From: a virus
Lineage: Duplodnaviria; Heunggongvirae; Uroviricota; Caudoviricetes
Virus record (IMG/VR): IMGVR_UViG_2579778989_000013
DNA: 27,028 nt
Strand: one strand, 5' to 3'
In this document: positions 4,766-18,031 of the stretch, in pieces
How positions within the stretch are numbered: the first letter of the stretch is position 1
Layout of the letters: each line of letters begins with the position of its first letter
Made by a program: the position numbers and the translations under genes
The notes under the pieces: model-generated
Database searches by the model: none
What the model saw: only the letters and a program-made list of their open reading frames with translations
What the model was told of the DNA's origin: nothing

Positions 4766-4794
4766 GCCCGCGTCTCCCAGCGCGGGCTTTTTTG
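4766..4794 (+). terminator. intrinsic terminator hairpin, plus-strand orientation, in the Q-nanS intergenic region
   Basis: gcccgcg-tctcccag-cgcgggc followed by ttttttg; a second hairpin agcccctc-cgga-gaggggct lies at 4805-4824. Confidence 0.4.
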
Positions 4795-5055
4795 TCCATA
4801 AGAAAGCCCCTCCGGAGAGGGGCTGGAGAGTGGCGCTATGTGCCATTGCATGGTGCCGGGTGCCTCCCGGTGAGTTCAGCCCGGTGCCACTAAACCCGCG
4901 TCATTCTCGTTTTGATAATCAGAGATTATACCGTCACCAGTCGCCCCTCCGCTCAGGGGGATTCACCATGCAGTTTTTTTCTAACAAATTCTCATCCGGG
5001 CAGACAACATTCAACTGACTTAATTGTGAGGTATGTAACATTCCTGTTGAACGGA

Positions 5056-6632: not shown

Positions 6633-6824
6633 CTATCCGGAGTGACTATTAAATCTTGCACGACGTCTGAGCCACCGGACATCCCACAGGTGAGACGTAT
6701 AATTGAAGGTTTTTACATCAGATTCGTTGGGGATTGGCCTGGGTTTATTTCGGGAGCGTTTCGTTGGAAGGTAATTGCAGTTTTCACAGACTATATCGGT
6801 AATGCTTCGTCGCTGTCGTCTCAT
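6633..6824 (-). CDS. ninE: NinE protein
   Basis: Translation [57 protein letters not shown] is near-identical in pattern to lambda NinE as recalled; ATGA overlap with the ninB stop. Confidence 0.8.
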
Positions 6825-7231
6825 TCATACCTCCTGTCGGTAAATCTGACACCCTGCTCCACAGCCCAGGAAGTTGTGTACTCAATCAGGCTTGCCATAC
6901 GCTTCACGCTCATCTGCGCACTGCTTTCGCGGATATTGACGTATTCACCTTCAAGACCTGGCAAAACATCAGCTTCCTGTTTTGTAGCCACGGCATGACC
7001 GCTGATTAACAAAACTTTCCACTGTTCTGGTTTTAGCCATCTGCCGCACCACTGAACCTGTCGGGAGATATCAGCGACCATCGCGTGAAATTTGGCATTT
7101 TGATCGAGATTCCGCTTGTAATCGGTGATGCGGATCGTAACGGGTTTGTCTTTATCGAGAGTTGTTGCAAGGATGGCGTTAATGGCGAATTGTTGCTGCT
7201 GTTTACTTCGGAGGAAGATAGTCTGGTTCAT
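6821..7231 (-). CDS. ninB: NinB (Orf-family recombination mediator)
   Basis: Translation shows NinB-like motifs ([26 protein letters not shown]) comparable to lambda NinB RSLDQNRKLWACLGDVSRQVEWHGRWL. Confidence 0.85.
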
Positions 7232-7285: not shown

Positions 7286-7951
7286 TCAGAATTCAAATTG
7301 TCTTGCCCGCAGGCTTTTCAGCATTGGCATGGCCCGCTGGATAACGGAACTTGACATGTCGAGACGTGTTACCTCCCTTAGTAGCGCGTCTCTGTTCTTC
7401 GTCACCATGTAGATGGTCTCAAACGCAATGTCATACAGCTTGTTCGTGTATGAGGAGTTCAGCTCTTTCATAATGGGATACAGGTGTTTGCTGAGGTCCT
7501 GGGCTTTTTCCATCCAGAGCTGCATGTAGCAAAGGAGGATGATTTCTTCGGCTGTGAATTGTGGCTGAATCTGCGGCTGCTGTTCGGTTGGTGCTGTTTT
7601 TCCCTGGCTGAAATAGCAGTCTTCCAGTTTTTCGAATACCTCCCACGCCCGATCGGTTTCGAGCATTTTTGCGTGACGGGCTGCGCCGCGTTCTGTCCAG
7701 AGGATGAGGGAGCGGGCATTTTTACCAACTAACCCGATTGTTTCGGGTCTGTTCTTAAACTCGCGTAATTCGTTTTTTTCAATTTTAAAGTAATGCTTTC
7801 CGGGCATGAATCGCGTCGTGTTGTTCAGAAAGTTATCAGAAATGTTTTTGATTTTTGTTCCGTAAAGGTGAGCCAACAGTTCAGTAGTAATTACGGGGAT
7901 CTGGTTATAGGTAACAGGGGAAAGGTTTTCGACAGAAATTTGAACAGCCAT
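7286..7951 (-). CDS. ORF6N/KilA-N-like domain protein (antirepressor-like), 221 aa
   Basis: N-terminus PVITTELLAHLYG...FMPGKHYFKIEKNELREFK...LWTERGAARHAKMLETDRAWEVFEKLE follows the ORF6N pattern; RBS GAGGT. Confidence 0.6.
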   Translation of the reverse strand: MAVQISVENLSPVTYNQIPVITTELLAHLYGTKIKNISDNFLNNTTRFMPGKHYFKIEKNELREFKNRPETIGLVGKNARSLILWTERGAARHAKMLETDRAWEVFEKLEDCYFSQGKTAPTEQQPQIQPQFTAEEIILLCYMQLWMEKAQDLSKHLYPIMKELNSSYTNKLYDIAFETIYMVTKNRDALLREVTRLDMSSSVIQRAMPMLKSLRARQFEF

Positions 7952-8112
7952 AATGACCTCGCGTTTCGATAATTTTTACCTCGCCACCGTCAGGTGCTAA
8001 TCATCGTGGTGGCGAACTGTGCGGGGTTAGCACTACCGGTCGAAACATCCGGCGAGCCTTTCGGCTCCCCCACACAGCCCGCCATAAATCGCGAATGTGA
8101 CTGTGCTTAGCG

Positions 8113-8136
8113 CATAAAAAAACCGCCAGCGCGGTT
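8113..8136 (-). terminator. intrinsic terminator on the minus strand
   Basis: Minus-strand hairpin aaccgc-gcug-gcgguu followed by uuuuuuuaug. Confidence 0.5.
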
Positions 8137-8293
8137 ATGCACCGTTTCGATATCCGGGGTGCTAATCCCGACGCCAGGTTTTGCTGGCGCGTGAGGAATA
8201 TAGCCCCGAACACGCGACGTTGTCAAACTGATGGCATTGCAGATCCCTACGCAATGTAACACTATGTGTTATACATTAATAACGGAACAAAAA

Positions 8294-8601
8294 ATGCGCA
8301 TTTTTAAAAACGCCTGGTTTGAGCGACTTGCACGCAAAACAAAATATCCGACCAATCACTGCGCGAAATTGTTAAACAGGCTGATAACGGGCTTATCTCA
8401 GCAAACCTGGGTAACGGCGTTATCAAGCAACGTCTGCCACGAGTCGGTGGCGGCAAATCTGGCGGTTATCGCACAATCATTTTCTATCGCGTCGGCACAA
8501 GGGCCTTTTTCGTATATGCATACGCAAAAAATGAACGTGAAAATATAACCGCTACTGAGGAAAGTGCATTTCGGAAGGGGCTCCTCACGTACTCAATCTA
8601 A
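8294..8601 (+). pseudogene. RelE/ParE-superfamily (HigB-like) toxin gene disrupted by a frameshift
   Basis: N-terminal frame MRIFKNAWFERLARKTK... (track ORF 8231..8548). The conserved toxin core KISDQSLREIVKQADNGLISANLGNGVIKQRLPRVGGGKSGGYRTIIFYRVGTRAFFVYAYAKNERENITATEESAFRK is in the -1 frame and ends at stop 8599-8601. The frames meet in the A-run around 8339-8345. Confidence 0.6.
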
Positions 8602-8655
8602 CAGATGAACAACTGGCACAACTGATTCTACAGGGTCAGTTTACGGAGGTACCCA

Positions 8656-8973
8656 ATGAGTAAAAATTACCGCAGTGATGCGCTTGCATCCGTACATGAA
8701 ATGATGGAATCGCTTCATGATATCGGCGCAGTAACGAAACAGACTATGCGAGAATTCGATGAAACTTGTCTCCAGCCAGCGCCGGTAATGTCTCCGGAAA
8801 GGATCCGTGCACTGCGCGAACGAGAGCATCTGTCTCAACCTGTTTTTGCCAGATACCTCAACGTCAGTAAAAACCTGATATCAGACTGGGAACGTGGTGT
8901 AAAACGGCCGGGAGGTGCCGCTCTTCGCCTTCTTTCAGTCGTAGAGAAAAACGGAATCCAGGTAATATCATGA
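8656..8973 (+). CDS. HTH (XRE-family) antitoxin partner of the HigB-like toxin
   Basis: Track ORF; C-terminal HTH PERIRALREREHLSQPVFARYLNVSKNLISDWERGVKRPGGAALRLL; follows the toxin by about 55 bp in HigB-HigA order. Confidence 0.7.
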   Translation: MSKNYRSDALASVHEMMESLHDIGAVTKQTMREFDETCLQPAPVMSPERIRALREREHLSQPVFARYLNVSKNLISDWERGVKRPGGAALRLLSVVEKNGIQVIS

Positions 8974-8987
8974 TACTCCAATACAAC

Positions 8988-9010
8988 AAAACCCGCCGAA
9001 GCGGGTTTTC
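8988..9010. terminator. bidirectional intrinsic terminator between the convergent higA-like and doc-like genes
   Basis: aaacccgc-cgaa-gcgggttttc, with A-tract upstream and T-tract downstream. Confidence 0.6.
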
Positions 9011-9023
9011 ATTAGAAGCACCT

Positions 9024-9509
9024 TTAGTTTTGCTGTTCTATTTTAAGCTTGATAGTTTCATACAAAACAACAGTTGCGCCTGTTTTACATAATTCCCGGC
9101 CGTCATACGCACGAGACCAATAACACAACCAGTTCTCGAGATCTTCTCGAGTATAGGTTTTGCAGGCCAGTCCCTCTGCCATTTCCACGATTTCATCGCC
9201 TGGTGCTGTTAACTCATAGCCATTCAACAACAAGAAGACATAACCAGCCATCATAGCTGTTCGTTTGTTTGCATTAGCAAATGGATGATTCTGAATCAGA
9301 CTTTCAATCAATACTGATGCCAGTACAAACATGTCATTAGTCTGTTCATACCATCGAACCATGCTGGGACGAGACTGAGAAGAACTTAAATTATCAACAC
9401 TCAGCACACTAACAGGTTCATCTGGTGTTTGAAGCTCAATTAAAAGGCGATTAATTTCGGTAAGATCATCAAACGAAAGGTAGTGCACTCCTTCAACAAT
9501 ATCAGCCAT
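9024..9509 (-). CDS. doc: Doc (death-on-curing)/Fic-family toxin, 161 aa
   Basis: Motif HPFANANKRTA fits the Doc-type signature HxFx(D/N)(A/G)NKR rather than the Fic motif HPFx(D/E)GNGR. ATG at 9509 inside track ORF 9024..9518. Confidence 0.75.
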   Translation of the reverse strand: MADIVEGVHYLSFDDLTEINRLLIELQTPDEPVSVLSVDNLSSSQSRPSMVRWYEQTNDMFVLASVLIESLIQNHPFANANKRTAMMAGYVFLLLNGYELTAPGDEIVEMAEGLACKTYTREDLENWLCYWSRAYDGRELCKTGATVVLYETIKLKIEQQN

Positions 9510-9527
9510 AGAGCACAATACCCATCA

Positions 9528-9707
9528 TTACACTTTTGAAAGTTCTTCCATTGCCTTCTCGTAACGAGAAAAACCGAAATCGAAAGCATTTTTCACCTGC
9601 TCACGATGAGTGCAATTTTCATCGATAGCCGGGCGCGGAGCTGCCACAACGCTTTTATCGCGAGGGGGAATAGTCAATCGCGGGTGTTTTTTTAGTGCGT
9701 AGCTCAT
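9528..9707 (-). CDS. putative antitoxin partner of Doc (unrecognised family), 59 aa
   Basis: Small ORF whose stop (9528-9530) lies 18 nt upstream of the doc ATG; translation MSYALKKHPRLTIPPRDKSVVAAPRPAIDENCTHREQVKNAFDFGFSRYEKAMEELSKV. Assignment rests on position only. Confidence 0.4.
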   Translation of the reverse strand: MSYALKKHPRLTIPPRDKSVVAAPRPAIDENCTHREQVKNAFDFGFSRYEKAMEELSKV

Positions 9708-9822
9708 TGGGTGTACCCTTACTTCTCCGTCCTGTTCTTTAACAAAAATCAAGTCAATACAAAATTAGTCAGGCTAATGTTGTTAGCATAGCCTAATACC
9801 AATCGTATTCACAACCACAGTA

Positions 9823-9848
9823 AGTGAAAAAACCCGCCGAAGCGGGTT
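9823..9848 (-). terminator. intrinsic terminator downstream of hok (minus strand)
   Basis: Minus-strand hairpin aacccgc-uucg-gcggguu followed by uuuuuca; same stem sequence as the 8988-9010 terminator. Confidence 0.6.
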
Positions 9849-9916
9849 AAGTGCGGGTGCGTTGAGGATGCCTGACACATCAGAGGTGGCGAGGGGTTTC
9901 TCCCCCGCCAGGGCTC

Positions 9917-10072
9917 TTACTCCTCAGGTTCGTAAGCTGTGAAGACAGCAACCTCCGTCTGACCGGTTCGGATTCGTACCTCGCAGAGGTCTTTCCTCGT
10001 TACCAGTGCCGTCACTACGACGGTAATACAGATGACGATCAGGGCGACTAACATCGCCTTTTGCTGCTTCAT
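9917..10072 (-). CDS. hok: Hok/Gef-family type I toxin (51 aa)
   Basis: Translation MKQQKAMLVALIVICITVVVTALVTRKDLCEVRIRTGQTEVAVFTAYEPEE closely matches the HokD/RelF sequence as I recall it. An in-frame upstream ATG at 10129 gives a Mok-like leader (track ORF 9917..10129). Fold-back hairpins lie in the leader at about 10190-10230. Confidence 0.85.
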   Translation of the reverse strand: MKQQKAMLVALIVICITVVVTALVTRKDLCEVRIRTGQTEVAVFTAYEPEE

Positions 10073-10317
10073 AGCCTGCTTCTCCTTGCCTTTCGGCGCG
10101 TAAGAGGCTAACCTACATGTGTCTAGCATGAAATTGGCCTCAGATTAATGTTAGGCGTCTTGCAGGACGCGTAATGTTAACTGGGGCTTTTCTCTGTCTG
10201 CCTTACGGTGGCATGCCCGAGGCAGACAGCCTCAAGCACCCGCAGCAATTCTACTTAACTCTCGCTTTACCGCAAACCGTTTTTACCCGATATGGGAATT
10301 CCCATATCGTAATGAAT

Positions 10318-10422
10318 TCAGTTCCCTAGTCGATCCATCAAAAACACAACCAGGCAGTAAACGCCCACAACAGCAATAACAGCCAGCGCACCTTCCATTG
10401 CCAGTGATATATCATCCGACAT
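10318..10422 (-). CDS. small hydrophobic peptide (34 aa), putative membrane protein
   Basis: RBS AAGGAGG 6 nt before the ATG; translation MSDDISLAMEGALAVIAVVGVYCLVVFLMDRLGN (one TM helix). Shorter than the ORF-track cutoff. Confidence 0.4.
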   Translation of the reverse strand: MSDDISLAMEGALAVIAVVGVYCLVVFLMDRLGN

Positions 10423-10457
10423 ATTCCCTCCTTTGGTGTTAATCCCGGCGAACGTTT

Positions 10458-10541
10458 TTACCCCCACCGACAAATAACATATACTAAAAAAGCGATAGCC
10501 ATAGCAACGCCTGTAATTGCAAATGCTTCAGGCCAGTTCAT
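10458..10541 (-). CDS. small hydrophobic peptide (27 aa), translationally coupled to the upstream DUF551 gene
   Basis: ATGA start/stop overlap with the DUF551 gene; RBS AGGAGG; translation MNWPEAFAITGVAMAIAFLVYVICRWG. Confidence 0.35.
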   Translation of the reverse strand: MNWPEAFAITGVAMAIAFLVYVICRWG

Positions 10542-11122
10542 TGGCGCACCTCCTGCGGCGGTTCTGGTAGCGGCATCCAGTCGGTTACATTGCGGCTCTG
10601 TGTTTCGAAAAATTCATCACCATCACGGACTACATCAAAAAACTCACCGTCTCGATATTGCGCATAAAGAACGAATGCGCCATCACATAAAATAATTACG
10701 TGCTGACCGTCATCCGGCATTCGCTCACTACAGCTTATCCAACCATCCAGAGTTACCGGATGGTTGGTTGACGTTTCCGAGATTTCCCGAAAATTATTGG
10801 TTGACGAACCCTTCTTTTCCCGAAAGTTTCCAGCCTGAAGCATGGCGGCGCTGTCTGGCGGGGCAGCATATAGCGGCACGTATATTTCCGGTTCCTTATC
10901 AGCACCGGGTTGCTCTTCCAGTGAGAATGTCTTTCCGGTAAATCGATTCATATAAAGCACGGGCTCTGCTTCCAGCGAAGCCTGAGCAACAAGGGCCAGT
11001 GCTAAATCCAACTCAATTGCCTCGAGAGAATTTTTGAATGCTGTCTGTTTTACTGCAAATTTCATCGCCTTTACATTTTCACTAACATGACTGATTAACT
11101 GCTCTTTTGTAAAAGTGGTCAT
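10538..11122 (-). CDS. DUF551-domain phage protein
   Basis: Strong RBS AAGGAGA before ATG at 11122 (inside track ORF 10538..11182). C-terminal region GWISCSERMPDDGQHVIILCDGAFVLYAQYRDGEFFDV...WMPLPEPP is typical of DUF551. Confidence 0.6.
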   Translation of the reverse strand: MTTFTKEQLISHVSENVKAMKFAVKQTAFKNSLEAIELDLALALVAQASLEAEPVLYMNRFTGKTFSLEEQPGADKEPEIYVPLYAAPPDSAAMLQAGNFREKKGSSTNNFREISETSTNHPVTLDGWISCSERMPDDGQHVIILCDGAFVLYAQYRDGEFFDVVRDGDEFFETQSRNVTDWMPLPEPPQEVRQ

Positions 11123-11178
11123 CTCATTCTCCTTTGATGCGAATGCCAGCGACAATTGAAGCCTGATAGCTAATTTAC

Positions 11179-11574
11179 TCACAGTACCGCCTCCTGAAAA
11201 TTCCCCTGATAGAAAGCCAGCACGCGCTGCATAACTTCACTATTCCGGCACTCGCGACAGATTATGTTCAGGCGTCTATCGTAGCGGCGAATTTCTCCGT
11301 CTGGTAACTTTCGAATCAATGTCTGGTCAGTTGTTTTCTCCGGTGTCTTACGCCATACGCGATACACCTGTTCTGATGCAAAAACACCGTATTTACCGGA
11401 CATGTATAAATCGCCACAAGCCAGTACATCCACAAGGCAACGTCTGACTGAATGCCAGCCTGCTCCCGTCGCTCTCTCCAGTTGCGATATCGTCATGCGT
11501 TCATTTTTGCGTACCAATCCGATAATTCGTGCCTTCAGTTCTTCCCGCTGTTCGTGTGTAAAAGGTTTCGCCAT
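11179..11574 (-). CDS. hypothetical nin-region protein (131 aa)
   Basis: RBS GGAGG before ATG at 11574; translation MAKPFTHEQREELKARIIGLVRKNERMTISQLERATGAGWHSVRRC...; within track ORF 11179..11589. Confidence 0.5.
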   Translation of the reverse strand: MAKPFTHEQREELKARIIGLVRKNERMTISQLERATGAGWHSVRRCLVDVLACGDLYMSGKYGVFASEQVYRVWRKTPEKTTDQTLIRKLPDGEIRRYDRRLNIICRECRNSEVMQRVLAFYQGNFQEAVL

Positions 11575-11589
11575 AAGCGCCTCCGGCAA

Positions 11590-12360
11590 TCACTTTTCCG
11601 ACACAATACGACCGGATGAATCGACAATCTGTCGAACAATATCCCGGTGCTTGTTCAGCTCCCGCAGCGCGGCGCAGACTCGCTCCCACTTCTGGACCTG
11701 TTTTTTGGCGCGACGAAGTTCTCGACTGGCAGCATGCAGCGATGGAAGCATCACCGAACTGGCAGATTTTTCGGTGAATGATGGAACTTCTCGGATAAAC
11801 TCATCTGTACTGGCCTTTGCCGTGCTCTCTGATGCCAACGGAAAACGATTCATTTCATCGCCTGCCGCGCTGTTTTCTGCGTCATGGTGTGATTGCTTAT
11901 TCTGCGATGATAAAGCGCTCAAATCGCCGTTTTCGACATCAGGCATTTTGTAACGGAATTTTCCGTTGCTGATCTCGCGTACCAGGCGTCTCGTTGCTGT
12001 TACCACCGCCAACGTGGAAGCAACCTTACGAGTGCTGACACCGAACTTCCCCGCCAGTTCCTCACACGTTTTAGCCCCATCCTGATCGATAAACTCAATC
12101 ATCATGTCTGCGGTAACTTTTGGAGCGACCTCTTCGGTTACCACATCCGGCGCTTCAGGTTGTAGTGCCTGCCCTTCGGTTACCCCGGCTTCACCTTCGA
12201 CAGCCAGAAACCAGGTGTGACCCGTTTTATCAACAACGCCATTTTTTTTGAGCTCCCACAGTTCGTTGAGAACTTCTTCACGGCTGATATCAAGCCGCGC
12301 CGCCAGTTCAACAGAATTGGCTTTTCCCATCGCTTTCAGTGCATGCAATACGGTTTCCAT
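11590..12360 (-). CDS. hypothetical phage protein with N-terminal winged-helix-like region (possibly DUF1627 family)
   Basis: Track ORF, 256 aa; follows the DnaC-like gene as in Stx-type prophages; family assignment from memory only. Confidence 0.55.
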   Translation of the reverse strand: METVLHALKAMGKANSVELAARLDISREEVLNELWELKKNGVVDKTGHTWFLAVEGEAGVTEGQALQPEAPDVVTEEVAPKVTADMMIEFIDQDGAKTCEELAGKFGVSTRKVASTLAVVTATRRLVREISNGKFRYKMPDVENGDLSALSSQNKQSHHDAENSAAGDEMNRFPLASESTAKASTDEFIREVPSFTEKSASSVMLPSLHAASRELRRAKKQVQKWERVCAALRELNKHRDIVRQIVDSSGRIVSEK

Positions 12361-15977: not shown

Positions 15978-16319
15978 ATGGCGTTCACTGACCTTGAATA
16001 TCAAGCGGTCAAAAAAGAAGTTCACCAATTCATTGAAAGCATAAGGCCGCCTGAACATATCCGCAATGAACTGGATATTGTTTATAGCATCAATGACCAA
16101 ACGATAGATATCGGCGAACAGCGCCCCGTGTGGCAGGGCAACCCAGGTGAAACAAACATCCTGCCATCAGCAAGAATCAAGTACATACGTTCTCTGGATA
16201 GATGGAAAATCTATTGGATGCGGAAGGATATGAAATGGCATCAGTACAGTACTGAACTTTCGCTGACTGATGCGCTTGAGCTTGTGCGTGCTGACCCGGA
16301 TTGCTGCTTCTTCGGATGA
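15978..16319 (+). CDS. hypothetical protein (113 aa), first gene downstream of cI
   Basis: Track ORF with strong RBS GAGGAGG; same strand as cI; no motif recognised. Confidence 0.6.
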   Translation: MAFTDLEYQAVKKEVHQFIESIRPPEHIRNELDIVYSINDQTIDIGEQRPVWQGNPGETNILPSARIKYIRSLDRWKIYWMRKDMKWHQYSTELSLTDALELVRADPDCCFFG

Positions 16320-16386
16320 GTGAAGAGACGTTTGGATGATGGATGGTCGCAGAGATGCGGCCTGATTCTAAAATAGGATATAAAAA

Positions 16387-16848
16387 ATGAGAATACTAGG
16401 TGTTAGAGCGGCGCCCAAAGTTACATCTTTTGTTGTATATTGCACTAATGAGTCTGCACTCAAATGTGTTGATGTTATTAAAATACCTTCGACCTTAGAC
16501 ACACCAGAAAAATTAAAGTATGTGAGAAATAACATCCTCGACATTCTTAATTTATATAATGTTGAATTAGCTGCCATACGCGTTACTGAATCAAACTCTG
16601 ATAATCTTAGCATTGACCGCCTTTATATAGAAGCTGTTATTCAAGAAGCATTTTCAAGCAGTGATGTAAGAAAATATTACACTATTAGAAAATCTGGCAT
16701 GAAATCATCATTGAACCTAACAGAGATCGAGTATAAAGAAATATTGAAGTCACACCGCAATATAAATGGAATCGATAATTCTGGTTTTACAACTGAAACA
16801 AATGAAGCTGTTTTGGCTGCTCTATCTGCGGAGGTAAGGGGATGCTAA
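16387..16848 (+). CDS. hypothetical protein (153 aa), translationally coupled to the downstream kinase gene
   Basis: Track ORF; its 3' end overlaps the kinase start by 7 nt; AT-rich codon usage unlike flanking phage genes. Confidence 0.55.
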   Translation: MRILGVRAAPKVTSFVVYCTNESALKCVDVIKIPSTLDTPEKLKYVRNNILDILNLYNVELAAIRVTESNSDNLSIDRLYIEAVIQEAFSSSDVRKYYTIRKSGMKSSLNLTEIEYKEILKSHRNINGIDNSGFTTETNEAVLAALSAEVRGC

Positions 16849-17888
16849 CTCCATACAAAAGAGCTGATGTAGAATTCGAATGGATTAGTGATCTAGAAGA
16901 ACAGGGTTGTTTTTCAAAAGTATATCTGGCTCATGACAGACACCTAGCTCATGACTTGGTGATTAAAGAAATAGAAAAAAAAGAAAACACTAACCACGAC
17001 GACTACTTTAATGAAGCAAGGCTTCTCTATAAACATGCACATCCAAATATTGTGCAAGTTCAGTATGCTGCTCAATGTGAGAGCAATATCTATATAGCCA
17101 TGCCATTTTATCATAATGGTTCGCTAAACCAATTAATGAAAAAAAATAATCTTACAAGCAGGGAGATAATACGGTATTCCATTCAATTTTTAAGTGGACT
17201 TTATCATATACACTCAAAAGGTCTTATGCATTTTGATATAAAACCTAATAACATTATGATATCAAACAGAAATGAGGCCATGCTATCTGACTTTGGATTA
17301 TCTCAGTTAGTCAATGAGGAATCGAGAGCTGCGCCTGAGTTTGGATATCATTTTCATGTGCCACCGGAATATTTTTCTTTATCAACAAATGATTATAATT
17401 TCACATATGACATATATCAGGCAGGATTAACCATATATAGAATGTGTGTTGGACATGATAATTTTGAAAGAGAAAGATCTGCATTTAGCACGATTGAACA
17501 ACTCAGAGAGTCGATAATTAATGGCTGCTATCCATTAAAAGAGTATCCTCCCCATATACATAAAAAATTAATAACAATAGTGAACAAATGCATTCATGTA
17601 GATCCAAATGAAAGATATCAATCCGTACTAGATGTACTAAACGATCTCTCAGCTATAAGTGATGGCGTTCTTGACTGGCGTCTACAGATGACGAAACCAA
17701 CTAACGGCACATGCGAATGGCAAAAAAAGTCTGGGGACGCTATACTGTCTATAGTTTTTGACGCAGAAAATTCGTCTACTACTGGTTTTCGTTTATACGA
17801 TGATGGGCGGAAAAGGCGTGCTACGAACTTAACAATATCCTCAGGATGTACCCCTACAAAACTGTATAGGTTATTAAAGGATAACTGA
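16842..17888 (+). CDS. Hanks-type (eukaryotic-like) Ser/Thr protein kinase, 348 aa
   Basis: Track ORF with RBS GGAGGTAAGGGG. Kinase subdomains: Gly-rich loop region EEQGCFSKVY, lysine in LVIKEI, catalytic loop HFDIKPNN (non-RD), SDFG, VPPEY; about 90-aa C-terminal extension of unknown function. Confidence 0.85.
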   Translation: MLTPYKRADVEFEWISDLEEQGCFSKVYLAHDRHLAHDLVIKEIEKKENTNHDDYFNEARLLYKHAHPNIVQVQYAAQCESNIYIAMPFYHNGSLNQLMKKNNLTSREIIRYSIQFLSGLYHIHSKGLMHFDIKPNNIMISNRNEAMLSDFGLSQLVNEESRAAPEFGYHFHVPPEYFSLSTNDYNFTYDIYQAGLTIYRMCVGHDNFERERSAFSTIEQLRESIINGCYPLKEYPPHIHKKLITIVNKCIHVDPNERYQSVLDVLNDLSAISDGVLDWRLQMTKPTNGTCEWQKKSGDAILSIVFDAENSSTTGFRLYDDGRKRRATNLTISSGCTPTKLYRLLKDN

Positions 17889-17890
17889 TC

Positions 17891-18031
17891 ATGAAAAAGC
17901 GCGAGGAAGTAAGCAAGCTGCCTCGCAGACGTGATGCAGCATTAGCGGTTCCCTACAAAAAAGATGAGTTCATAAGCCCTTCTGATGACAAAAAATTTTC
18001 AAAGGCGAAAAGTTTTACATCTACATCTCTA
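17891..18031 (+). CDS. possible small basic ORF (46 aa) after the kinase gene
   Basis: ATG 3 nt after the kinase stop; translation MKKREEVSKLPRRRDAALAVPYKKDEFISPSDDKKFSRRKVLHLHL; no independent support. Confidence 0.2.

Follow-up and report, generated by a model that had tools for sequence, protein, structure and literature searches.

A lambdoid prophage island of toxin-antitoxin cassettes in Escherichia coli: two candidate active modules and one orphan antitoxin

Three apparent toxin-antitoxin (TA) modules lie side by side within about 2 kb of the nin region of a lambda-like (lambdoid) Escherichia coli prophage, bracketed by a DUF551 gene (10538-11182) and an ORF6N antirepressor gene (ORF6N/P22AR_C; 7286-7951), both recognized by Pfam matches. 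Such a stack raises the question of whether it represents three working systems held together by selection or a site at which accessory cassettes have gathered and in part decayed. This question was addressed in a window of 27,028 nucleotides (IMG/VR record IMGVR_UViG_2579778989_000013), the whole stretch of viral DNA that was analyzed. An earlier note on this DNA had described the three modules; its coordinates and its family calls (Hok, Doc, the HTH antitoxin and the DUF551/ORF6N flanks) were confirmed by Pfam, TIGR01550 and Rfam. The families to which the genes belong, their state (intact or decayed), the folds of the RNAs, and the boundaries and distribution of the cassettes were computed directly. 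The island is a real moron or TA hot spot with components that are all of known kinds and, judged from the sequence, it yields two candidate active modules (plausibly hok/sok and Doc) and one orphan antitoxin, the RelE module having decayed.

The RelE-type toxin gene (PF06296, HigB-2-like; 8294-8663, plus strand) was analyzed by translation in three frames and by DNA alignments, and is a double-frameshift pseudogene. The ORF that begins at the native ATG comprises 84 aa (8294-8548), beyond which the gene runs on in the other two frames. One base has been lost from an A run that is A4 in the window (8336-8339) and A5 in intact genes (deletion 1), and a second base is missing between positions 8578 and 8579 (GGAAGG^GGCT; deletion 2). 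When both bases are restored the gene encodes a protein of 123 aa that matches PF06296 end to end (155.9 bits), is 98% identical to the intact 123-aa toxin of E. coli 2013C-3033 and has Vibrio cholerae HigB-2 as its nearest solved structure (E 0.004, core aligned). In the profile searches which the earlier note had proposed as a check, Hok, Doc and the HTH antitoxin were matched, but the native RelE ORF aligned with PF06296 over residues 1-34 only and scored 18.6 bits, under the gathering score of 27. Programmed frameshifting is an unlikely way to restore the product, as a slippery heptamer was not seen on reading the sequence and the ribosome would have to shift by +1 on two separate occasions. 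In related genomes the PGAP annotation calls an internal fragment of 68-89 aa a "RelE/ParE family toxin", and some residual activity of this fragment may exist. The RelE-fold toxin gene has lost its reading frame twice, leaving a decayed HigB2/HigA2-like module.

The second gene of this module, which encodes an XRE-type HTH antitoxin of 105 aa (HigA-2-like; 8656-8973, plus strand), is intact. The protein matches HTH_3 (E 1e-7), phrog_2104 (147 bits) and, via its C-terminal HTH, the V. cholerae HigA-2 in the PDB (E 7.9e-8). The end of the toxin gene and the start of the antitoxin gene overlap by 8 nt, as in intact loci, and the length of 105 aa is also annotated in genomes with intact toxins. 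The antitoxin is now an orphan, and its persistence is probably due to a role in autorepression or in the neutralization of incoming related toxins.

At the opposite end of the island a hok/mok/sok locus has the features of a complete type I TA. The full-length hok mRNA (9826-10241, minus strand), delimited with the help of Rfam, its fold and an alignment with hokW and two hokD loci, holds mok, hok and the pairing between its 5' and 3' ends. The mok gene (9917-10129, minus strand) was taken from the ORF list; it is a 70-aa ORF that contains hok in frame and matches the mokW feature of phage 933W in length and position. The hok product (9917-10072, minus strand) matches the Hok/gef family PF01848 (E 1.4e-23, 42 of 42 profile positions) and phrog_251, and the Rfam hok/sok model RF01794 is matched over its full length on the strand of hok (10067-10241, minus; 116.9 bits versus a gathering score of 59). 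In the minimum-energy fold predicted for the mRNA (-176.4 kcal/mol, z -7.3) the first 12 nucleotides are paired with the 3' end, and the fbi element is represented by GGGUGCUUGAGG, which pairs with CCUCAACGCACCC. A promoter-like TTGCGG-16-TAGAAT, recognized by eye only, is located just upstream of the mRNA (10275-10248). The Sok antisense RNA is predicted on the plus strand (10121-10191), a position transferred from the sokW annotated in 933W, which is nearly identical in sequence to this region. Its 5' tail, single-stranded and reaching over the start of mok, would be followed by a long hairpin and then UUUU (predicted fold -32.9 kcal/mol, z -6.2), and the RNA is preceded by a promoter-like TTGCCT-17-TAACCT (10087-10115) seen by eye and absent from the promoter-scan output. 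The homologous hokW-sokW has been validated experimentally as a type I TA in which Hok kills and Sok neutralizes (PMC8621323). In the island, a stable hok mRNA would be made from its own promoter and kept translationally inert by the pairing of its ends, and the short-lived Sok RNA would block translation of mok and therefore of hok. Loss of the prophage, its induction, or an infecting phage that shuts off transcription would each end Sok synthesis, after which the processed mRNA would be translated and Hok would depolarize the inner membrane. For the island as a whole, it is by inference that the toxins are called toxic and the antitoxins neutralizing and labile, and the same applies to any benefit from addiction, defence or lysis timing.

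Between these two modules lies doc (death-on-curing, a Fic-fold kinase; 9024-9509, minus strand), which encodes 161 aa and has an alternative TTG start at 9518. The protein matches TIGR01550 at 122.1 bits (cutoff 38.65) over profile positions 2-122 of 122, as well as PF02661 and phrog_577 ("Doc-like toxin", 171.9 bits). Its intact motif HPFANANKRTA can be aligned to the corresponding motifs of P1 Doc and PDB 9vzc; with the signature H-x-F-x-N-A-N-K-R preserved, the protein is classed by its sequence as a Doc-type toxin. P1 Doc phosphorylates EF-Tu, arresting translation, and from its family the island Doc would likewise phosphorylate EF-Tu and halt translation.

The gene directly upstream of doc (9528-9707, minus strand) encodes a candidate antitoxin of 59 aa, which matches phrog_2208 (143.9 bits), a family of unknown function; 18 nt separate the end of its ORF from the doc ATG. 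The protein belongs to no named family in Pfam, NCBIfam or the PDB, and neither phmmer nor a profile search against the PDB gave anything relevant, Phd and every other solved antitoxin included. A Phd/YefM identity was rejected, as hhalign gave a probability of 0.2% against a P1 Phd sequence that was not taken from a database. No DNA-binding domain is recognizable. Alignment of 14 homologues shows a nearly invariant stretch of 24 C-terminal residues and a variable N-terminal half, and in the AF2 model residues 1-33 lack regular structure and residues 34-57 form a single helix (block-mean pLDDT 84-93). The order of partner and then Doc is kept in an Ewingella tail-gene cluster, in a Salmonella prophage and in a DinI/UmuDC neighbourhood, with a spacing of 4-18 nt across unrelated contexts, and in two Pseudomonas phages the pair, at about 55% identity, adjoins an integrase. 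Between Enterobacterales and Pseudomonas phages the pair is conserved at about 55% identity with both genes intact, which would imply purifying selection on the pair. The pair also decays, as illustrated by L014, where a 76-aa ORF without a Fic match comes after the partner, and by Salmonella phage SW-37, where the Doc match is split in three pieces. By its synteny and shape, the 59-aa protein is likely the antitoxin of Doc; it would bind the toxin via the conserved C-terminal helix, and the unstructured N-terminal half would make it labile.

How the cassettes came to be joined is suggested by their boundaries. The terminator scan detected only two hairpins inside the island, both scored on the minus strand, one downstream of doc and also 3' of the HTH gene (8988-9009) and one at the end of the hok mRNA (9831-9848 in the scan). 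Both correspond to a perfect 20-nt direct repeat, AAAACCCGCCGAAGCGGGTT (copy 1, 8988-9007; copy 2, 9829-9848), that is the terminator hairpin itself, and the two copies bracket an 841-bp unit made up of partner and doc. Homology breakpoints fall on terminator hairpins, at 8983 and 9007; homology to a prophage with Doc and hok begins at 8983, and O157:H7 TX 265-1 has a single hairpin copy at the junction of HTH gene and hok and no Doc cassette. The shared hairpin would permit the gain and loss of cassettes by recombination. The GC content of the doc cassette is slightly lower (42% versus 46-52%). The statement that each module is bounded by intrinsic terminators holds for doc and hok, but the plus-strand relE-HTH operon shares the doc hairpin (8988-9009), its only terminator, in which the T tract is poor. 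Neither the relE-HTH nor the partner-doc operon had a sigma-70-like promoter in a consensus scan, and no inverted-repeat operators were found upstream of relE or of the doc partner at seed 6. The island is separated from the ORF6N gene by a C4/isrK antisense-RNA cassette (8005-8203, minus strand; RNA-model match), and the promoter-like site of this cassette (8226-8197, consensus promoter scan) overlaps the island start at 8200 that the earlier note gave.

Of 5426 complete E. coli genomes, 217 carry the relE/HTH module, 125 the doc module and 34, O104:H4 included, all three modules. Closely related prophages show presence/absence polymorphism for the modules which, with the breakpoints on terminator hairpins, bears out the earlier description of a variable moron island in the early-right (nin) region. 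That the stacking is unusual finds little support: stacks of two are far commoner at this site than stacks of three (RelE, HTH and hok in O157:H7; Doc and hok in ERL06-2442), and a Salmonella prophage has four side by side (hok, the same Doc pair, ParDE and VapBC). Among sequenced phages no record carries the whole island, the best covering 37% of it (relE-HTH in PhiR12_3) and others hok only. A chimeric 400-nt query for the empty site (8055-8254 joined to 10262-10461) retrieved, from all E. coli complete genomes, no record with both halves within joining distance; a cassette-free prophage with exactly these flanks is absent from this collection. Literature searches found no paper describing this particular TA stack.

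Errors of sequencing or assembly in the RelE-type gene, with an intact toxin in the living strain, would be suggested by deletion 1, which shortens a run of five A residues to four, the sort of place at which homopolymer errors typically arise. However, the site of deletion 2 is not a homopolymer in intact genes, and both deletions lie in a 691-bp segment that is 100% identical in finished O104:H4 genomes from different laboratories. Deletion 1 is present in all the near-identical genomes aligned, O104:H4 among them, and in the induced phage PhiR12_3, and deletion 2 is shared by the window, cM8a and O104:H4 and is absent from NCCP15648 and PhiR12_3, which thus have the first deletion without the second. 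This nested sharing across independent assemblies fits descent and not error, and an artefact is extremely improbable. The same evidence weighs against the view of the earlier note, in which selection for defence or stabilization of the prophage would have stacked three unrelated TA modules, all of them functional. Three cassettes are indeed there: every gene pair is present, RefSeq labels the toxin genes as parts of TA systems, the RelE module retains an intact antitoxin, and TA stacks recur at comparable prophage sites; nevertheless, with two frameshifts in the RelE-type toxin and its native-start ORF under the Pfam threshold, they do not amount to three active modules. The first frameshift is common to independently sequenced genomes and to an induced phage, and the toxin has been split separately in another lineage (GE3; "(x2)" toxin annotations in 8 sampled records), which argues against selection keeping this toxin. 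As to defence, PADLOC matched no island component to any dedicated defence-system protein, returning weak generic matches to the antitoxin HTH domain and two marginal ones to Doc, and hokW-sokW doubled phage release after induction, an effect on release rather than on defence (PMC8621323). Selection for defence or stabilization as first stated goes beyond these data, and three functional modules so maintained are very unlikely.

The cassettes could instead be selfish hitch-hikers at a permissive recombination site, serving only their own retention, of no benefit to phage or host, and decaying when that retention fails. This is a possibility of the weaker sort: their patchy distribution, their junctions at the shared 20-nt hairpin and the recurrent toxin decay agree with it, but the doubled release given by hokW-sokW (PMC8621323) indicates that hok/sok at least can act at the level of the phage, and the Doc pair kept intact at about 55% identity suggests purifying selection. 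Regarding Doc alone, the toxin might be a solitary Fic-type effector that modifies a host target in lytic growth, the small gene upstream being an unrelated regulator or leader peptide. The strictly kept adjacency and order of the two genes in unrelated contexts makes this improbable, as does the combination of an invariant amphipathic C-terminal helix with a variable disordered N-terminus, the usual build of a toxin-binding antitoxin, and the upstream hok terminator isolates the pair from hok transcription; on the other side, the partner lacks a family, Phd similarity and a DNA-binding fold, and both genes point the same way as the early-right operon and could therefore be read from PR in lytic growth. 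Taken together, the island is probably best explained as a recombination hot spot at which moron cassettes have accumulated, three TA cassettes among them, one of which has decayed. This hot spot would lie between the replication genes and ninB, where self-contained accessory cassettes would collect.

With one toxin broken and the cassettes of known kinds, the find is an ordinary one, except for the uncharacterized Doc partner; the component kinds are well known and the biology is unsurprising. If the partner neutralizes Doc, the phrog_2208 protein could be a new type of antitoxin. A wider reading, to be held only tentatively, is that phrog_2208 founds a family of minimal Doc antitoxins (a disordered, degron-like N-terminal half and an invariant toxin-binding helix, with no DNA-binding domain), that a partner-doc cassette of about 0.8 kb moves among Enterobacterales and Pseudomonas phages via the shared terminator hairpin, and that its stacking with an orphan HigA2-like anti-addiction factor makes the site a hot spot of abortive infection or superinfection exclusion. 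The island also shows that active TA content is overstated by counting annotated toxin genes: RefSeq calls internal fragments of the double-frameshifted gene a "RelE/ParE family toxin" with no pseudogene flag, the O104:H4 outbreak strain included. Additionally, it illustrates a mechanism of prophage mosaicism in which cassettes are swapped with a 20-nt terminator hairpin as the shared junction.

The morons of lambdoid phages, a concept derived from the comparative genomics of HK97 and HK022, are accessory cassettes that interrupt rows of conserved genes and carry their own transcription signals. The island cassettes resemble them in that they come and go among collinear prophages, are terminator-bounded and lie partly on the opposite strand, but differ in that the consensus scan demonstrated no own promoter for two of the three. 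The RelE module shares with HigB-2/HigA-2 of V. cholerae the order of toxin first and antitoxin second with overlapping stop and start; however, the similarity is distant and the island toxin belongs to PF06296 and is a pseudogene. Like Phd-Doc of P1, the Doc module has a toxin of the TIGR01550/Fic-Doc family with the motif HxFx[DN]ANKR and a small same-strand gene directly upstream. The two toxins are distant (E 1e-4 over 63 residues), the island Doc being about 35 aa longer, and the partner, of 59 aa against 73 aa for Phd, is not a Phd/YefM protein and lacks a predicted folded N-terminal DNA-binding domain. The island hok locus has the layout of hokW-sokW of the Stx2 phages (933W and Sakai Sp5), with promoter, leader, in-frame mok, hok, 3' fold-back element and antisense Sok, at about 91% DNA identity across promoter, leader, coding region and 3' element; the Hok proteins are 86% identical. 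Homology to 933W ends just before the terminator hairpin, which differs between the two, and hokW-sokW is located near the right end of 933W beyond the tail genes, whereas the island locus occupies the nin region, as hok does in mEp460 and other lambdoid phages.

The early-right operon of this lambdoid E. coli prophage lies on the minus strand and, read along that strand, begins with the replication genes, followed by DUF1627 (11590-12360), DUF977 (11179-11589) and DUF551 (10538-11182), which precedes the toxin-antitoxin (TA) island. After the island come a C4/isrK antisense-RNA cassette (8005-8203), the ORF6N/P22AR_C antirepressor gene (7286-7951) and NinB (6821-7231), all on the minus strand, and then the rest of the nin genes and Q. 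The three gene pairs described in the earlier note are present where it had placed them, and their family assignments were right (PF01848/RF01794 for hok, PF02661/TIGR01550 for doc and HTH_3 for the antitoxin). Among complete genomes, E. coli cM8a (99.7% across the island) and several more, the O104:H4 outbreak lineage among them, come closest; in these, RefSeq annotates the toxin genes as TA components, calls the HTH gene no more than a helix-turn-helix protein or a DNA-binding regulator, and lists the gene for the 59-aa partner of Doc as hypothetical.

The claim that all three modules are active is not supported for the RelE-type toxin, whose gene is broken by two 1-bp deletions. From the native ATG (8294) only 84 codons are open, and the match to PF06296 is confined to the first 34 residues (18.6 bits, below the Pfam threshold of 27); in frame translations, toxin-family-like sequence resumes in another frame (…GGGKSGGYRTIIFYR…AYAKNEREN…) before shifting to a third (…LNLTDEQLAQLILQGQFTEVPNE*). 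Alignment with the intact 372-nt genes of E. coli 2013C-3033 and O157:H7 TX 265-1 located the frameshifts at an A5 run shortened to A4 (8336-8339) and at one base missing between 8578 and 8579. The repaired toxin (123 aa) is 98% identical to that of 2013C-3033 and matches 120/120 positions of PF06296 with 155.9 bits. The sampled O104:H4 genomes carry both deletions in a 100% identical 691-bp relE-HTH segment; the first deletion also occurs in cM8a and, without the second, in NCCP15648 and the induced phage PhiR12_3. This nested pattern rules out sequencing error as the cause of the frameshifts and argues for real, stepwise decay. The toxin gene has been split independently in an approximately 84% identical lineage (GE3), and two toxin CDS fragments with the same split signature occur in 8 records among those sampled for relE-HTH. 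The antitoxin measures 105 aa throughout the lineages, including those with a split toxin; the HTH protein (8656-8973) matches HTH_3 and, among solved proteins, comes closest to V. cholerae HigA-2 (E 7.9e-8). Since the relE-type gene is doubly frameshifted, its toxin would be dead, leaving an island of two candidate active modules and one orphan antitoxin. In cM8a (L001 9196-9402, with a non-canonical start codon) and in two related E. coli genomes (L002 4196-4465; L003 4140-4397), RefSeq/PGAP annotates a different piece (68-89 aa) from within the frameshifted gene each time, labels it 'type II toxin-antitoxin system RelE/ParE family toxin' and does not mark it as a pseudogene.

Doc (9024-9509, minus strand) matches PF02661 and TIGR01550 (122 bits, cutoff 38.65), and its HPFANANKRTA stretch is the Fic motif in its Doc form, aligning with P1 Doc and the solved protein 9vzc. 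The upstream 59-aa partner (9528-9707, minus strand) has no relative in Pfam, NCBIfam or PDB and belongs to a small family (17 clusters in a search among 5.8 billion proteins) corresponding to phrog_2208, which carries no function label. Among 14 aligned members the C-terminal 24 residues (EQVKNAFDFGFSRYEKAMEELSKV) hardly change, and the N-terminal 33 are variable; AlphaFold2 predicts residues 1-33 without regular structure and one helix at 34-57 (pLDDT block means 84-93 over residues 31-59, overall mean 76.8). The order partner-then-Doc recurs in Ewingella amid tail and baseplate genes, in a Salmonella prophage adjoining hok, ParDE and VapBC, adjoining DinI/UmuDC, and next to the integrase in the Pseudomonas phages Sirocco and LPPA56, where both proteins show about 55% identity. 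Its conservation across such unrelated neighborhoods indicates that the pair behaves as a two-gene module; decayed copies of the pair were found too. The predicted build of the partner fits a toxin-binding antitoxin. A relationship to Phd/YefM was sought by profile search of the PDB and by hhalign against Phd, both negative, and no DNA-binding domain was seen in the partner. On the Salmonella enterica contig DAAWNC010000008.1 (L010, 3496-6009), the early region of a prophage contains four adjacent TA modules: a Hok-family peptide, this 59-aa partner with Doc, ParE/ParD and VapC/VapB.

A perfect 20-nt direct repeat (AAAACCCGCCGAAGCGGGTT) occurs at 8988-9007 and 9829-9848, 841 bp apart. Each copy makes up the stem-loop of a hairpin resembling a terminator; both hairpins score on the minus strand, one downstream of doc and the other downstream of hok. 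In O157:H7 TX 265-1 RelE-HTH is followed directly by hok, and the 20 repeat bases are exactly the overlap between its two homology blocks with the window; in a prophage with Doc and hok and without the RelE module, homology begins at 8983. From the overlap and this breakpoint, the terminator hairpin is the common junction for gain or loss of the Doc unit. The Doc unit is slightly poorer in GC (42% vs 46-52%). Among 5426 complete E. coli genomes the relE-HTH segment occurs in 217 and the Doc unit (coverage at least 80%) in 125; the whole island is in none of the sequenced phage records, and no record among the complete E. coli genomes searched has the flanks joined without a cassette. The earlier claim of unusual stacking is not supported: the triple stack itself is uncommon (34/5426), stacking as such is common at this site, and a stack of four modules occurs in Salmonella. 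The reading of the island as a moron and TA hot spot is supported.

Hok (9917-10072) and its in-frame mok extension (to 10129) match PF01848 (E 1.4e-23). The Rfam hok/sok model RF01794 matches 10067-10241 (116.9 bits); this match is on the hok strand and stops at the hok AUG, so that it captures the leader of the hok mRNA and not the antisense RNA itself. The locus aligns with hokW-sokW of the Stx2 phage 933W and with hokD of two other E. coli prophages; the alignment starts immediately upstream of a conserved promoter-like element (TTGCGG-16-TAGAAT, read by eye) and ends immediately beyond a conserved 3' element. In the folded 416-nt transcript (10241 to 9826; MFE -176.4 kcal/mol, z -7.3) the first 12 nt (GGGUGCUUGAGG) pair with CCUCAACGCACCC near the 3' end, a predicted pairing that corresponds to fold-back inhibition, the hallmark of hok mRNAs. 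The annotated 933W sokW RNA maps with near-identical sequence onto 10121-10191 (plus strand); the predicted Sok segment folds into an unpaired 5' tail over the mok start, then a long hairpin and U tract (z -6.2), and is preceded by a TTGCCT-17-TAACCT element. A perfect 22-nt palindrome (CGATATGGGAATTCCCATATCG, 10288-10309) is found immediately upstream of the hok promoter region; kept in two other hokD loci and not in 933W, it could be a protein-binding site or cassette boundary. Two tiny minus-strand ORFs between DUF551 and hok (10318-10422, 34 aa, a hypothetical protein in RefSeq; 10458-10541, 27 aa) are hydrophobic, with one predicted membrane-spanning stretch each and no family matches.

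Further features occur elsewhere in the window. Rfam models place a C4 antisense RNA at 8005-8089 (75 bits), isrK at 8116-8190 (74 bits) and a c4 a1/b1 target element at 8151-8203, all on the minus strand, preceded by a near-consensus promoter-like TTGACA-18-TATATT (8226-8197, minus strand) and lying upstream of the ORF6N/P22AR_C gene. Together, 8005-8226 and this gene look like an RNA-controlled antirepressor cassette of the P1 immI or Gifsy-1 isrK type within the nin region. The sRNA family STnc100 is matched strongly and at full length at 4794-5000 (minus strand, 168.7 bits), downstream of the antiterminator Q gene. Adjoining a LexA-like repressor gene, a further accessory cluster at about 16000-17930 (plus strand; L001 16817-18727) encodes DUF3024, a RuvC-family protein and a serine/threonine protein kinase, and recalls the 933W kinase; these genes are identified solely from how RefSeq annotates the 98.6%-identical region of cM8a.

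The components of the island are of known kinds, the small Doc partner family alone being undescribed in the sources searched. PADLOC returned no dedicated defense-system protein matches among them, and the promoter scan found none for the two protein operons (relE-HTH and partner-doc). We infer that the modules may benefit phage or host; candidate roles are post-segregational retention of the prophage, abortive infection upon host transcription shut-off by an incoming phage, and, by analogy with what is reported for hokW-sokW, lysis tuning after induction. That locus is an experimentally established type I TA system in which Sok RNA vanishes upon mitomycin C treatment, HokW reaches the inner membrane and phage release is doubled (PMC8621323).
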